The notes beneath the pieces are model-generated. The model did no database searches. It saw only the letters and a list, made by a program, of their open reading frames with translations, and was not told the origin of the DNA. A stretch of 64,000 nt of DNA from positions 70 to 64,069 of the forward strand of contig JACPWY010000055.1 in the NCBI GenBank assembly GCA_016196825.1, given 5' to 3'. Both the position numbers and the translations under genes were made by a program. Origin of the DNA: Deltaproteobacteria bacterium (GTDB lineage: Bacteria > Bdellovibrionota > FAC87 > UBA2466). Positions 40,591 to 49,061 of this stretch are shown piece by piece (position 1 is the stretch's first letter; each line of letters opens with the position of its first letter).

Positions 40591-42039
40591 ATGGTCCGAA
40601 ATTACATTGATGGTCGTTGGGTTGATTCGACGGGGCGGGAATCTGTCGACATCATCAACCCCGCCACCGAAGAGGTGCTCGACAAATGTCCACTCGGTAC
40701 AGCCGAGGATGTAAACCGCGCGGTAGCGGCCGCCCAAGCGGCCTTTCCCGCCTGGCGCCAGACGCCGGTCATCGATCGCGTCCAGTATCTTTTCAAACTC
40801 AAAAGCCTGCTCGAGGCCACCTTCGACGAAATCGTCGCCCTCAATACCGCTGAACACGGCAAGACACTGGTCGAATCGCGCGGCGACGTCCGCCGCGGTA
40901 TCCAGATGGTGGAAACTGCCTGCGGCATGCCGAGCCTCATGATGGGCCAATGCTCCGAAGACGTAGCAGCGGGTATCGACTCGATGAGCGTGCGCCAGCC
41001 GATGGGAGTCTTCGCCGCCATCACGCCGTTTAATTTTCCAGCGATGGTTCCCTTTTGGTTTTGGCCATTCGCCATCGCGAGCGGCAACACATTCGTCCTC
41101 AAACCTTCCGAGCGCGTGCCACTCACCCAAGTTAAAATCTTTGGCCTCCTAGAAAAGACCGGCCTACCCAAAGGCGTGATGAATCTGGTCGCGGGCAGCA
41201 AGGATGTGGTCAATGCACTCTGCACTCACCCCGATGTGAAGGGCGTCTCGTTCGTCGGCTCAACTCCGGTCGCGAAACACGTCTACCAAACCGGCACGTC
41301 GCACGGAAAAAGGGTCCAGGCCCTGGGCGGCGCGAAAAATTTCATGGTGATCCTCCCCGACGCCGCGATGGACACCTCCATCAGCACCTGCCTCGAATCG
41401 ATCATCGGCTGCGCCGGGCAGAGGTGCCTCGCAGGCTCCGTGATCATCTCGGTCGGCGATTGCGCCAAGACGGTGAGCGATCGCATCGTACGGCTCGCCA
41501 GCGATGTGCGCATAGGCAACGGCGCCGACCCGCAAACCCACATGGGGCCCGTGATCTCGCGCTCTTCGCTAGAACGGATCCACGGCCTCATCCAATCTGC
41601 GGCCCTTGACGGCGCGCAGATTCTCCTCGATGGCCGGCAGACCGCAGGCCGCGGCTATTTCTTAAAACCCACGGTCATCGCGGGCGTGACTCCCAAGATG
41701 CGCATCGCCCAGGAGGAGATCTTTGGCCCGGTCGTCTGCCTGGCGAACACCGACTCGCTCGCAAGCGCCATCCAGTGGATCAACTCGTCGCCGTTTGCCA
41801 ACACGGCTTCCCTTTTCACCAACTCAGGCGCAGCGGCCCGACAGTTCAGCTACGAGGCGGCCCCGGCCATGTTAGGCCTCAACATTGGGGTCCCGGCCCC
41901 GATGGCCTATTACTCCTTTGGCGGCGCGAAAGATTCCTTTTTTGGTGACGTGAAGGCGCACGGAGCACAGGGCGTGCTCTTCTTCACCGATCAGAAGGTC
42001 ACCATCTCGCGCTGGAAGAAGAACTCAAACATCTGGTGA
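40591..42039 (+). CDS. mmsA: CoA-acylating methylmalonate/malonate-semialdehyde dehydrogenase
   Basis: AAITPFNFPAMVPFWFWPFAIASGNTFVLKPSE and catalytic Cys context GCAGQRCLAGS are MmsA hallmarks. ATG 40591 is preceded by AGGGGGAG. Confidence 0.85.
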   Translation: MVRNYIDGRWVDSTGRESVDIINPATEEVLDKCPLGTAEDVNRAVAAAQAAFPAWRQTPVIDRVQYLFKLKSLLEATFDEIVALNTAEHGKTLVESRGDVRRGIQMVETACGMPSLMMGQCSEDVAAGIDSMSVRQPMGVFAAITPFNFPAMVPFWFWPFAIASGNTFVLKPSERVPLTQVKIFGLLEKTGLPKGVMNLVAGSKDVVNALCTHPDVKGVSFVGSTPVAKHVYQTGTSHGKRVQALGGAKNFMVILPDAAMDTSISTCLESIIGCAGQRCLAGSVIISVGDCAKTVSDRIVRLASDVRIGNGADPQTHMGPVISRSSLERIHGLIQSAALDGAQILLDGRQTAGRGYFLKPTVIAGVTPKMRIAQEEIFGPVVCLANTDSLASAIQWINSSPFANTASLFTNSGAAARQFSYEAAPAMLGLNIGVPAPMAYYSFGGAKDSFFGDVKAHGAQGVLFFTDQKVTISRWKKNSNIW

Positions 42040-42043
42040 GACC

Positions 42044-43426
42044 ATGAAAAAGACCCTCATCAAAAATGGCACGGTCGTGACAGCGACCGACACAGCCGCG
42101 GCCGACATTCTCATCGAAGGGGAAAAGATCGCGGCCATCGGACGCGACCTCTTCCATTCACCCGACACGACGGTCGACGCCACCGGTTGCTACGTCATCC
42201 CGGGCGGCATCGACGCCCACACTCACCTCGATCTCCCCTTCATGGGCACCTCCTCGAGCGACGATTTTGAGACAGGCACCCGCGCGGCCCTCTTTGGCGG
42301 CACGACCTCCATCATCGATTTCGCCTTCCAAACTCAAGGGCGCTCACTCAAAGAGGGGCTCGCCACCTGGCGCGAAAAGGCCGCAGGCCGTGCCATCGCC
42401 GATTATGGATTCCACATCGCCGTCACCGATTTCAATCCGACTGTCCATCAAGAGGTCCGCGACCTAATCGAAAAGGATGGCGTCACCTCCTTTAAGACCT
42501 TCATGGCCTATAAAGGCGCTCTCATGATTGACGATAAGCAGATGATCGGCCTCATGAATGAGGTCAAGAAGTGGGGTGGGCTCGTCACGGTCCACGCCGA
42601 AAATGGTGATCTCGCCGATTCGCTCATTCAGCAAAACTGTGAGGCCAAGAACCTCGCCCCGAAGTTCCACGCCCTTTCACGGCCCGAAATCGTTGAGTCC
42701 GAGGCCACGGGGCGCGCAATTGACATCGCCTACGCCGGAGGCCACCCGCTCTATGTCGTGCACATGACGTGCGAGGGGGCGCTCAACCGAGTGCGCGAGG
42801 CCACCAAGCGCAACCAGACGGTTCTCGTCGAGACCTGCGTGCAGTACCTCCTTCTCGATGATTCCGTCTACGAACGGCCCGGTTTCGAGGGGTCTAAATG
42901 GGTGATGAGCCCTCCGATTCGCAAACCAAAAGATCAGACAGCACTCTGGAACGGGATCGATCAAGGACTCGTCCACACAGTAGCCACCGATCACTGCCCC
43001 TTTTGCCTCGATCAAAAGGCAATGGGGAAGGATGACTTCTCCAAGATCCCCAACGGCGCCCCCGGCATCGAGCACCGGATGGAGCTCATGCACTCCGAGG
43101 GCGTCGTTAAGAACCGGATCACGCTCAACCGTTTCGTCGATCTCAATTGCACAGCGCCTGCGAAGATTTTTGGCCTCTACCCGAAAAAGGGGAGTCTCTC
43201 CGTCGGAAGCGACGCCGACATCGTCATTTTTGATCCCAAGGTGCAGCACACGATTTCCCAAAGCACCCACCACATGCGGTGCGATTACTCGGCCTACGAA
43301 GGCTGGAAGGTCCAGGGCAAGGTCCGCACCGTGTATTTGCGCGGCACCTGCGCCATCGACAAGGGGCAGGTCCTGATTGGCAAGGGCTTTGGACAATACC
43401 TGCCCCGCAAGAAGTTTAAGGAGTAG
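42044..43426 (+). CDS. dihydropyrimidinase / D-hydantoinase
   Basis: Cyclic amidohydrolase N-terminus: KNGTVVTA...VIPGGIDAHTHLDLPFMGTSSSDDFETGTRAALFGGTTSIIDFA. Length 460 aa. Confidence 0.85.
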   Translation: MKKTLIKNGTVVTATDTAAADILIEGEKIAAIGRDLFHSPDTTVDATGCYVIPGGIDAHTHLDLPFMGTSSSDDFETGTRAALFGGTTSIIDFAFQTQGRSLKEGLATWREKAAGRAIADYGFHIAVTDFNPTVHQEVRDLIEKDGVTSFKTFMAYKGALMIDDKQMIGLMNEVKKWGGLVTVHAENGDLADSLIQQNCEAKNLAPKFHALSRPEIVESEATGRAIDIAYAGGHPLYVVHMTCEGALNRVREATKRNQTVLVETCVQYLLLDDSVYERPGFEGSKWVMSPPIRKPKDQTALWNGIDQGLVHTVATDHCPFCLDQKAMGKDDFSKIPNGAPGIEHRMELMHSEGVVKNRITLNRFVDLNCTAPAKIFGLYPKKGSLSVGSDADIVIFDPKVQHTISQSTHHMRCDYSAYEGWKVQGKVRTVYLRGTCAIDKGQVLIGKGFGQYLPRKKFKE

Positions 43427-47521: not shown

Positions 47522-47615
47522 TCATATAGTATATCTATATATAATATGCTTTTCAAGCTGGATGGAGTTTTCAGCAGTAGGCGTAATTGCCGAAATTGTC
47601 CTATAGAATAATCAC

Positions 47616-49061
47616 ATGCCAAAACACAATTCCGCTTTCACCAATGAAGACCTAGCCATTGTCCCTCCCTCCGCCAGAAGGTGGGGCACTTGGAATTTTG
47701 CGGCCCTCTGGATCAGCATGAGCCTCTGTATTCCCACCTACATGATCGCAAGCTCTCTCATCGAAGGCGGCATGAACTGGTGGCAGGCGGTGCTCACAGT
47801 GTTCGTAGGAAACGCGATTGTGCTTGTCCCAATGGTGCTCAACGGCCACGCCGGCGCGGAATATGGCATTCCATTCCCGGTTTTCGCGCGAGCGAGTTTC
47901 GGCGTGCTCGGCGCCAATATTCCGGCTATCCTGCGCGCCATCGTCGCGTGCGGCTGGTTCGGCATCCAGACCTGGATCGGCGGCTATTCGCTCTATCAAA
48001 TGGTCCATGCCTGGTGGCCCGGCATCGCGACGCTTCCGACGATCTTCCCCGCAGCCATCGGCCTCGAGACAGGCCCCGCCATCACCTTCGCCCTCTTCTG
48101 GCTTCTCAACATGTTTGTCGTCTATAAAGGGATCGACAGCATCCGAAAGTTACTACTTTTTAAAGCTGTCTTTCTCCCGGTCGCGGCACTCAGCCTTCTC
48201 GTCTGGGCCATCGGCGCCGCCAAGGGCTTGGGCCCCATCCTCGCTCAACCGTCCAAGTTCCAAACGGCCGGAGAGTTTTTCAATTTCTTTTTCCCCGCCC
48301 TCACCGGAATGGTCGGCTTCTGGGCGACACTGTCGCTCAACATCCCCGACTTCACCCGCTTCGCGAAATCCCAACGGGCTCAAGTCTTGGGCCAGGCCAT
48401 TGGCCTTCCACCCTCAATGACACTCTTCGCCTTCATCGGCGTCGTCGTCACAAGCGCCACGACGATCGTCTTCGGAAGGGCGATCTGGGACCCAGTCGTT
48501 CTCGCCGGAAAGTTCGAGAACCCCTGGCTCGTGAGTGCCGCAATGATCGCAGTCGTCATCTCGACCCTCGCGACCAACATCGCCGCCAACATCGTGAGTC
48601 CAGCGAACGATTTCGCCAACCTCAAGCCGGATCTCATCGATTTCAAGATCGGCGGCTACATCACCGGAGTGCTCGGCGCCCTCATCATGCCCTGGAAGCT
48701 CATCAATGATCCTACGGGCTACATCTTCACATGGCTCATCGCCTATTCTTCGCTGTTGGGTCCCATCGGCGGCATCCTGATTATCGATTACTTTGTCTTG
48801 AGACAGAAAAAACTCGTTGCCCAGGAGCTCTACTCTCCCAACGGCCGCTACTGGTACAAGAACGGCTTCAACCCCGTCGCCATCGTCGCCATGGTCGCCG
48901 GCATCCTCCCCAATGTCCCCGGCTTCCTAGTGACCATCAAGGTCGTCGACCCCACGGCATTTCCCGAATGGATCTCGCACCTCTACAACTACGCCTGGTT
49001 CGTCGGCTTCGCGGTGTCCGCAGTGATCTACAAAGCCCTCTCCCCCAGTCCGCCTTCATGA
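47616..49061 (+). CDS. NCS1 family nucleobase:cation symporter (cytosine/uracil/hydantoin permease type)
   Basis: 481 aa with about 12 predicted TM helices. The NCS1-like N-terminus (...ERRWGTWNFAALWISMSLCIPTYM...) and overall pattern fit. It sits next to the pyrimidine catabolic genes. Confidence 0.75.
   Translation: MPKHNSAFTNEDLAIVPPSARRWGTWNFAALWISMSLCIPTYMIASSLIEGGMNWWQAVLTVFVGNAIVLVPMVLNGHAGAEYGIPFPVFARASFGVLGANIPAILRAIVACGWFGIQTWIGGYSLYQMVHAWWPGIATLPTIFPAAIGLETGPAITFALFWLLNMFVVYKGIDSIRKLLLFKAVFLPVAALSLLVWAIGAAKGLGPILAQPSKFQTAGEFFNFFFPALTGMVGFWATLSLNIPDFTRFAKSQRAQVLGQAIGLPPSMTLFAFIGVVVTSATTIVFGRAIWDPVVLAGKFENPWLVSAAMIAVVISTLATNIAANIVSPANDFANLKPDLIDFKIGGYITGVLGALIMPWKLINDPTGYIFTWLIAYSSLLGPIGGILIIDYFVLRQKKLVAQELYSPNGRYWYKNGFNPVAIVAMVAGILPNVPGFLVTIKVVDPTAFPEWISHLYNYAWFVGFAVSAVIYKALSPSPPS

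Follow-up and report, generated by a model that had tools for sequence, protein, structure and literature searches.

The 64-kb stretch of contig JACPWY010000055.1 analysed here (64,000 nucleotides from a member of the Bdellovibrionota, hereafter called the window) carries at positions 40591-49061 the genes for MmsA, a dihydropyrimidinase, a beta-ureidopropionase, a class-III aminotransferase, a PreA-type reductase and an NCS1 permease. On balance, we favour the view that they belong to a conserved Bdellovibrionota operon for complete reductive pyrimidine catabolism, in which the dihydropyrimidine dehydrogenase (DPD) PreA works without a dedicated PreT subunit and draws on an electron donor encoded elsewhere. 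DPD commits pyrimidines and 5-fluorouracil to degradation, and to our knowledge, the supply of electrons to its FMN site is understood only in the PreT-containing enzymes that use NAD(P)H and in a single clostridial enzyme that depends on ferredoxin. If our view is correct, the conserved, partner-less DPD of this aerobic phylum would demonstrate that different electron supplies can be coupled to the catalytic half of the enzyme, and it would provide a simple bacterial system for the question of which reductant is used by the plant enzyme PYD1 (PMC2713857, PMC9930899). Predatory Bdellovibrionota could burn the pyrimidines of their prey to acetyl-CoA and ammonia; a literature search found no paper linking Bdellovibrio with dihydropyrimidine metabolism.

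The operon and its conservation

Gene identities were assigned from the open reading frame (ORF) listing, from scans with Pfam and NCBIfam profiles and from comparisons with solved structures. The operon genes and the associated deaminase gene are the following:

40591-42039, plus strand: mmsA; Pfam Aldedh, E = 3e-135; NCBIfam TIGR01722, 576 bits (cutoff 448)
42044-43426, plus strand: dihydropyrimidinase (PydB); NCBIfam equivalog TIGR02033, 607 bits (cutoff 393)
43429-44295, plus strand: CN-hydrolase, nitrilase-superfamily beta-ureidopropionase (PydC) of the eukaryote type; Pfam CN_hydrolase, E = 4.5e-65
44306-45613 (alternative start 44273), plus strand: class-III aminotransferase (PydD-like); Pfam Aminotran_3, E = 1.5e-87
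45610-46887, plus strand: PreA-type dihydropyrimidine dehydrogenase, stand-alone; NF006183, 440 bits (cutoff 335)
47616-49061, plus strand: NCS1 nucleobase:cation symporter; Pfam Transp_cyt_pur, E = 1e-126; TIGR00800, 400 bits (cutoff 353)
54327-54764, minus strand: Fcy1-type cytosine deaminase; yeast cytosine deaminase (Fcy1) structures, E ~1e-45, versus 1e-18 for TadA

The intergenic distances between the first four genes are 4, 2 and 10 nt, and preA overlaps with the aminotransferase gene by 4 nt (ATGA). A preliminary description of the window, made from the letters and the ORF translations, had named the genes from mmsA to the NCS1 permease in this order with tight or overlapping junctions and had placed an Fcy1-type cytosine deaminase about 5 kb downstream. 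The ORF listing and the family scans confirm the former at the positions given above, and the deaminase is found at a distance of 5.3 kb.

In the proposed pathway, the NCS1 permease would import the bases, and the Fcy1-type deaminase would convert cytosine to uracil. Uracil or thymine would then be reduced to the dihydropyrimidine at the FMN site of the PreA-type flavoprotein, and the ring would be opened by the dihydropyrimidinase. The nitrilase-type beta-ureidopropionase would release ammonia, CO2 and beta-alanine (or beta-aminoisobutyrate), which the class-III aminotransferase would convert to malonate (or methylmalonate) semialdehyde, and MmsA would finally form acetyl- (or propionyl-) CoA.

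As in the relatives, mmsA is the first gene of the operon, and its product is predicted by the family profiles to be a CoA-acylating malonate/methylmalonate-semialdehyde dehydrogenase, which would catalyse the last step of the pathway. The dihydropyrimidinase is 75-82% identical to the corresponding proteins of 22 relatives. The nearest solved structures of the CN-hydrolase are the beta-ureidopropionases of Drosophila (2vhh, E = 1.5e-73) and human (6ftq, E = 6.6e-67), and N-carbamoylputrescine amidase ranks behind them; the protein passes no NCBIfam equivalog model (AguB: 252 bits, cutoff 410), and we infer its PydC substrate specificity from these comparisons. The aminotransferase, which scores below the cutoffs of all NCBIfam equivalog models, is presumed to be a beta-alanine/beta-aminoisobutyrate transaminase, with the specificity for beta-alanine suggested by the gene context; its start at position 44306 corresponds to a 435-amino-acid gene call on the identical contig L001. 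The NCS1 permease, whose gene directly follows preA in most relatives, presumably takes up uracil/cytosine. PydB and PydC are thus encoded together with the reductase, the combination by which a Pyd cluster is recognized. Promoter-like and terminator-like sites are no commoner between positions 40100 and 49400 than in shuffled sequences.

A partial protein that is 100% identical to the PreA of the window is labelled as originating from a Deltaproteobacteria bacterium metagenome-assembled genome (MAG). Around 50 protein clusters are 69-85% identical to this PreA, and the next ones reach at most 57%. A scan of one genome per GTDB species yielded 22 loci, and those with an informative label all stem from Bdellovibrionota, Bdellovibrionaceae or Pseudobdellovibrionaceae MAGs. 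The order mmsA, dihydropyrimidinase, CN-hydrolase, aminotransferase, preA and NCS1 permease, often followed by the cytosine deaminase, is shared by the 22 species loci and by three metagenome contigs. An Fcy1-type deaminase with 77-83% identity is encoded near the NCS1 permease in 13 related loci and abuts it in about ten of them; in the window, it is displaced by approximately 5.3 kb.

Absence of an adjacent PreT and the subfamily of the reductase

The preliminary description had stated that the window contains no PreT-like (GltD-like) partner for PreA, and this holds. Using PreT of E. coli (EcPreT, from NC_000913) as a tblastn probe, the best match within the 64 kb has an E-value of 5, and the PreA of E. 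coli (EcPreA) detects the window gene at E = 1e-73. The domain Fer4_20 is absent from the 48 window proteins scanned with Pfam (eight operon genes and 40 other ORFs), and the sole match to Pyr_redox_2 (20 bits, below the cutoff of 26.1) is the Rossmann segment of a KMO-like FAD monooxygenase encoded at positions 55423-56793. No GltD-like protein, ferredoxin gene or Fdx1-domain ORF was found within the 64 kb. The same is true for 24 related loci, including those of the 22 Bdellovibrionota species genomes, in which no PreT/GltD-like, ferredoxin or Fdx1-domain ORF lies within 10 kb of the operon. In these loci (395 kb), the EcPreT probe found nothing at E < 0.05, the best match (E = 0.054) being a 99-amino-acid Rossmann stretch in locus L023. 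Furthermore, residues 1-120 of EcPreT gave no Fdx1-like match in the window or the related loci, and a scan for CxxCxxCxxxC motifs in ORFs of at least 60 amino acids revealed no additional ORF with such a motif in either. When all ORFs of at least 60 amino acids were clustered by blast across the loci, only the operon genes and antisense shadow ORFs were conserved. A preT gene immediately outside the window, which the preliminary description had considered, is unlikely, as the window includes 40 kb of sequence before and 15 kb after the operon and no preT lies within 10 kb in any of the 24 related loci.

The probe was evaluated with a control set of 80 metagenome loci whose PreA is about 40% identical to that of the window, 66 of which have at least 1.5 kb of upstream flank. 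A PreT match with 29-38% identity to EcPreT was obtained in 64 of these 66 loci, nearly always directly upstream of preA; therefore, a PreT would have been detected by the probe. The difference between the control loci (64/66) and the clade (0/21) is highly significant (Fisher's exact test, p = 3e-18).

A homologous operon with PreT is found in locus L070 (positions 1-8703; metagenome contig Ga0114931_10011211). Its mmsA, dihydropyrimidinase, CN-hydrolase, aminotransferase and NCS1 permease share 64, 64, 77, 65 and 62% identity with the window proteins, and for four of these five genes, this is the nearest sequence outside the clade. The L070 operon ends in a canonical preT-preA pair, and its PreA is merely 38% identical to that of the window. 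Thus, where PreT is used, its gene sits inside the operon, and the sequences indicate that in the Bdellovibrionota version of the operon, a different position is occupied by a PreA of a different lineage. Among named proteins, those nearest to the L070 PreT come from Xanthomonadales/Lysobacterales. The idea that L070 represents a sister lineage of the Bdellovibrionota was dropped for this reason, and no direction of transfer is claimed. A search seeded with the L070 PreT returned no match with a Bdellovibrionota name among the best 120, few of which carry names at all.

The relationships of the reductases were examined in a rough neighbour-joining (NJ) tree of 173 PreA sequences, which is midpoint-rooted and has no support values. 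In this tree, L031/P0053 (57% identical) and the L029/L030 group (46-47%) fall together with the Bdellovibrionota clade, and PreT is absent in every group member whose context is known (the clade, L029, L030 and L031). The members have in common a long linker between the last cysteine of the first and the first cysteine of the second [4Fe-4S] motif, which comprises 33 amino acids in the window PreA and 31-33 in the group, with P0062 (24 amino acids) as the single exception; in 63 of 64 PreT-linked PreA proteins, the linker is shorter than 30 amino acids, with 22-27 residues. Judged from these sequences, the window reductase falls into a distinct subfamily of stand-alone PreA proteins marked by the longer linker. 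A basic patch in the linker that could serve as a docking site for ferredoxin found no support, since lysine plus arginine approximately equal aspartate plus glutamate in the clade and there is no net charge bias.

It was also considered whether all PreT-less PreA proteins form one clade, but L112, L115, L034 and L064 are PreT-less, have short linkers and are placed near the PreT-linked L113 and L114. An adjacent PreT has therefore been lost repeatedly, and only the long-linker group is uniformly PreT-less. Three of these loci contain other, unrelated Pyd clusters without PreT and with a short-linker PreA (L112, 5148-10231; L115, 6001-12421; L034, 5454-10656). In L115, preA is accompanied by genes for a dihydropyrimidinase, an iron-containing alcohol dehydrogenase (Fe-ADH), an aminotransferase and an M20/M28 peptidase, a cluster that looks like a reductase-type extended Pyd pathway.

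The window PreA comprises the following elements:

45616-46515, plus strand: FMN (DHO_dh) domain
46612-46827, plus strand: 2x[4Fe-4S] ferredoxin domain; Pfam Fer4_21, E = 2e-14
46666-46767, plus strand: long linker between the two cysteine motifs (subfamily-specific)

Several lines of evidence identify the protein as a predicted true PreA and not a dihydroorotate dehydrogenase (DHOD). It passes the PreA model NF006183 and fails pyrD (pyrD_sub1: 199 bits, cutoff 270). Among solved structures, domains IV-V of pig DPD are closest in sequence (residues 533-1006, E = 7.8e-72; DHOD B: 2e-29) and also in fold, with an AlphaFold2 model (mean pLDDT 86) reaching a TMq of 0.82 to pig DPD versus 0.64 to DHOD B. 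Residues N74, N134, C137, N202 and T203 align with N609, N668, C671, N736 and T737 of pig DPD, of which C671 is presumably the catalytic acid and the others are taken to be pyrimidine-binding residues according to the structures of Dobritzsch. These asparagine, threonine and catalytic cysteine positions are invariant across 22 clade members and 64 PreT-linked homologues. The suggestion of the preliminary description that the reductase might be a different DHOD-like enzyme is hence rejected. PreA also possesses two full CxxCxxCxxxC [4Fe-4S] motifs (C343/346/349/353 and C386/389/392/396), and all eight cysteines are retained by the clade members and by all PreT-linked homologues that were examined. 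The conservation of the eight cluster cysteines, of the catalytic cysteine and of the asparagine and threonine residues of the uracil site in the clade indicates that the clusters are under selection. Residue 3 of PreA aligns with residue 533 of the pig enzyme; the protein begins at the FMN barrel and therefore does not contain an Fdx1 domain.

Comparison with known dihydropyrimidine dehydrogenases and the electron supply

The closest precedent for the window enzyme is PydAc of Clostridium chromiireducens, which it resembles but does not match. Wang et al. (2020) reported that PydAc, in which the FAD and NADPH domains are absent, uses reduced methyl viologen or ferredoxin as the electron donor for uracil reduction; according to the introduction of that paper, it has no activity with NAD(P)H (PMC7332683). 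Among 3419 PydA candidates with a PydB neighbour, Pyr_redox_2 was found in an adjacent gene in 2781 cases and fused in 29, and the remainder came mostly from Clostridiales (PMC7332683). PydAc and the window enzyme are both FMN reductases from Pyd clusters with a dihydropyrimidinase and a ureidopropionase, both keep the C-terminal 2x[4Fe-4S] domain, and both lack the Pyr_redox_2 FAD/NADPH module in the polypeptide as well as in adjacent genes. PydAc, however, keeps both ferredoxin domains (four clusters), with Fdx1 being fused to the enzyme in C. chromiireducens and encoded by a separate adjacent ORF in C. pasteurianum (PMC7332683), whereas Fdx1 is missing from the window protein, the window and the 24 related loci; this distinction relies on the description of PydAc and not on a sequence alignment. 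The two enzymes also differ in their hosts, which are strictly anaerobic Clostridiales in the case of PydAc (PMC7332683) and a member of the Bdellovibrionota with O2-dependent enzymes in the case of the window. A later proposal assigns a role in uric-acid reduction to UacX, an enzyme resembling PydAc (PMC12507026). The preliminary description had seen an opportunity to define a variant pathway: a conserved PreT-less variant is indeed present, but PreT-less Pyd clusters already have a characterized precedent in PydAc (PMC7332683), and the window case is a variant of a known theme and not a new pathway.

The window PreA has the same domain organization (FMN barrel and 2x[4Fe-4S]) and the same catalytic residues as EcPreA, to which it is 36% identical over 402 amino acids. 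It differs from PreT-PreA of E. coli and the bacterial PydA1/PydA2 enzymes in that it has no adjacent preT and a linker that is 8-10 residues longer, and it is placed on a separate branch together with other PreT-less proteins. The preTA genes of E. coli are not part of a Pyd pathway (PMC7332683), unlike the window gene. Pig/human DPYD (PDB 1H7W, 1GTH), the best solved relative, shares the residues Asn609, Asn668, Cys671, Asn736 and Thr737; the mammalian enzyme is a 1025-amino-acid fusion that includes domains I-III (Fdx1, FAD and NADPH), all of which are missing from the window PreA. The plant plastid DPDs PYD1/OsDHPD lack the Fe-S domain, are inactive in vitro and have an unknown electron donor (PMC2713857, PMC9930899). 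They resemble the window enzyme in being short DPDs with a complete reductive pathway and no identifiable PreT-like partner, but the latter keeps a fully conserved Fe-S domain. With the extended Pyd pathway to acetyl-CoA of Bacillus megaterium, as it is cited in PMC7332683, the window operon shares PydB and PydC as well as a CoA-acylating malonic semialdehyde dehydrogenase, and its class-III aminotransferase would correspond to the beta-alanine aminotransferase of that pathway; as far as that article describes the Bacillus clusters, they have an adjacent Pyr_redox_2 subunit, which the window operon lacks, and the latter adds the NCS1 permease and the Fcy1-type deaminase.

In the proposed mechanism, electrons would reach the FMN via the two conserved C-terminal [4Fe-4S] clusters, a direction of flow that we infer, and would be supplied by a donor encoded elsewhere. 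By analogy with the clostridial PydAc, the most probable donor would be a housekeeping ferredoxin, which might be reduced, e.g., by ferredoxin-NADP reductase. It is a more tentative proposal, which we put at somewhat short of even, that the enzyme represents a third architectural class of DPD, in which an FMN barrel is combined with just one long-linker 2x[4Fe-4S] domain and no GltD-type subunit. In aerobic predatory Bdellovibrionota, it would use electrons from a housekeeping ferredoxin or flavodoxin system and would stand in for the canonical PreT-PreA of an otherwise homologous catabolic operon.

A number of points weigh against a stand-alone PreA that is served by a general donor. The DNA searched consists of operon neighbourhoods and includes no complete genome of the clade, and a distal PreT/GltD-like partner is possible. 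The analogy to PydAc is incomplete, as PydAc retains Fdx1, either fused or in a neighbouring ORF, and the window enzyme does not; the host encodes O2-dependent enzymes, so that the rationale of an anaerobic lifestyle given for PydAc is not directly applicable. Heterologously produced PydA of Brevibacillus agri, a PreA-type subunit, and the plant PYD1/OsDHPD showed no measurable activity (PMC2713857, PMC9930899). Moreover, all data on the clade come from MAGs or metagenome contigs, and the NJ tree that defines the subfamily is midpoint-rooted and without support values.

The strongest rival explanation, which we regard as less likely, is that PreA is part of a conventional PreT-PreA heterotetramer whose NAD(P)H/FAD/Fdx1 subunit, either a dedicated PreT or a shared protein of the GltD family, comes from a gene elsewhere in the genome. 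Modules of the GltD family serve many enzymes, and the region inspected per genome covers only the 10 kb on either side of the operon (in the window, 40 kb before and 15 kb after it). In addition, the PreT-less L112 and L115 interleave with the PreT-linked L113 and L114 in the tree, which indicates that adjacency can be lost, and as described in PMC7332683 and PMC9930899, the PreA-type subunits studied so far, such as that of E. coli, require PreT. This explanation has to account for the fact that 24 loci, which represent 22 or more species, have all other pathway genes and the transporter, often together with the deaminase, in a single compact operon that never includes the supposedly obligate partner, although preT abuts preA in 64 of the 66 control loci and is retained inside the homologous operon of L070. 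The PreA of the clade, furthermore, belongs to a separate long-linker subfamily whose members with known context are all PreT-less. The missing Bdellovibrionota names among the best 120 matches of the L070 PreT point in the same direction, weakly, as few of these matches are named.

A PreA that is supplied by a general donor also has to be weighed against a self-sufficient enzyme, in which the FMN would be reduced directly by NAD(P)H through the kind of ping-pong use of the pyrimidine site seen in dihydrouridine synthases or class 1A DHOD, with the Fe-S domain having a structural or regulatory role. This mechanism would be in line with the FMN barrel's weak match to Pfam Dus (E = 2e-9) and with the lack of any partner conserved in cis. 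The eight cluster cysteines, however, are kept across the clade and all examined PreT-linked homologues, which argues for electron transfer. NAD(P)H supports the activity of neither PydAc (PMC7332683) nor rice OsDHPD (PMC9930899), and PydAc loses its activity without cluster reconstitution (PMC7332683). Because of the strict conservation of the cysteines and the behaviour of PydAc, direct use of NAD(P)H is improbable. Least probable of all is that the protein is not a DPD but a DHOD or a reductase for another heterocycle, for which the DHO_dh fold common to DHODs and the existence of PydA-like enzymes with other substrates, such as UacX of uric-acid degradation (PMC12507026), could be cited, given that the PreA equivalog but not the pyrD model is passed, that DPD ranks first in both the sequence and the fold comparison, that the uracil-site residues are conserved, that the gene is embedded between those for the dihydropyrimidinase/beta-ureidopropionase and the nucleobase permease in all relatives, and that no PyrK-like (FAD/2Fe-2S) neighbour was found among the window ORFs scanned or in the related loci.

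Local insertions and the remainder of the window

Between preA and the permease gene, the operon of the window is interrupted by two genes on the opposite strand:

46938-47297, minus strand: VapC (PIN-domain toxin); Pfam PIN, E = 1.8e-15
47294-47521, minus strand: VapB-like ribbon-helix-helix (RHH) antitoxin; Pfam RHH_1, E = 5e-7

The preliminary description had identified a VapBC pair at this site, and both the PIN and the RHH gene were recovered. They overlap by 4 nt (47294-47297), with the PIN toxin being preceded by a small DNA-binding antitoxin as is typical for VapBC; the NCBIfam VapC models stay below their cutoffs. VapBC is present only in the window and the identical contig L001, no relative's operon has it, and in L003, for instance, the permease gene begins 8 nt after preA. 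Since VapBC is restricted to these two sequences and other relatives carry different insertions in the operon, it is an incidental, strain-specific insertion outside the pyrimidine system. A sigma-70-like site (10/12 matches) is located at positions 47556-47528, just upstream of the antitoxin gene, in a region whose site counts are not above chance. The flanks of the insertion contain no meaningful direct or inverted repeats, and a weak palindrome at positions 46889-46926 was the sole such element.

Among the relatives, L027 has a gene for a 521-amino-acid multi-pass membrane protein (11421-12986) between preA and the NCS1 permease, and L017 contains an antisense gene for a 506-amino-acid membrane protein (2626-4146) between the CN-hydrolase and the aminotransferase. 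In the unrelated lineage of L114, a MazE-antitoxin/PIN pair immediately follows preT-preA (4650-7943); this second PIN toxin-antitoxin system next to preA is probably a coincidence. The stretch of about 5.3 kb that separates the permease and the deaminase in the window (49056-54302) contains ORFs with almost no Pfam matches, apart from a weak match to GH26 (51403-52548) and a match to SH3_3 (52931-53311), and looks like an insertion specific to this genome.

Downstream of the operon, a kynurenine-pathway cluster is located on the minus strand (54761-61376), which encodes an M24-like protein, a KMO-like FAD monooxygenase, a kynureninase (TIGR01814), an ACMSD-like Amidohydro_2 protein, a 3-hydroxyanthranilate 3,4-dioxygenase (TIGR03037), RidA and an aldehyde dehydrogenase. 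The cluster implies aerobic tryptophan catabolism or NAD synthesis, and genes for a P450 and a Rieske oxygenase lie in the flank of a relative. KMO-like monooxygenases, 3-hydroxyanthranilate dioxygenases, P450 enzymes and Rieske oxygenases use O2; the host is therefore not a strict anaerobe.

Upstream of the operon, a PilZ-domain gene precedes a gene for a 3847-amino-acid protein (27421-39474, plus strand) with at least 15 Ig-like repeats of the HYDIN/ASH/Cep192 type (Pfam E-values down to 1e-145), which may be a giant surface or adhesion protein. A tRNA-Ser(CGA) at positions 24116-24199 (plus strand), the sole match of an Rfam scan at gathering thresholds, overlaps the start of the mechanically called ORF 24136-24972, whose 5' end is therefore probably spurious. 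A second PIN-domain gene (16091-16606, plus strand) lies beside a gene for an AAA_14 ATPase (16740-17924, minus strand), and the two may form another toxin or defence module. Near the end of the window (61412-63646, minus strand), a 372-amino-acid ORF with a weak doubled-CXXCH (multihaem-like) match and a 306-amino-acid protein with an HNH-endonuclease domain are encoded.

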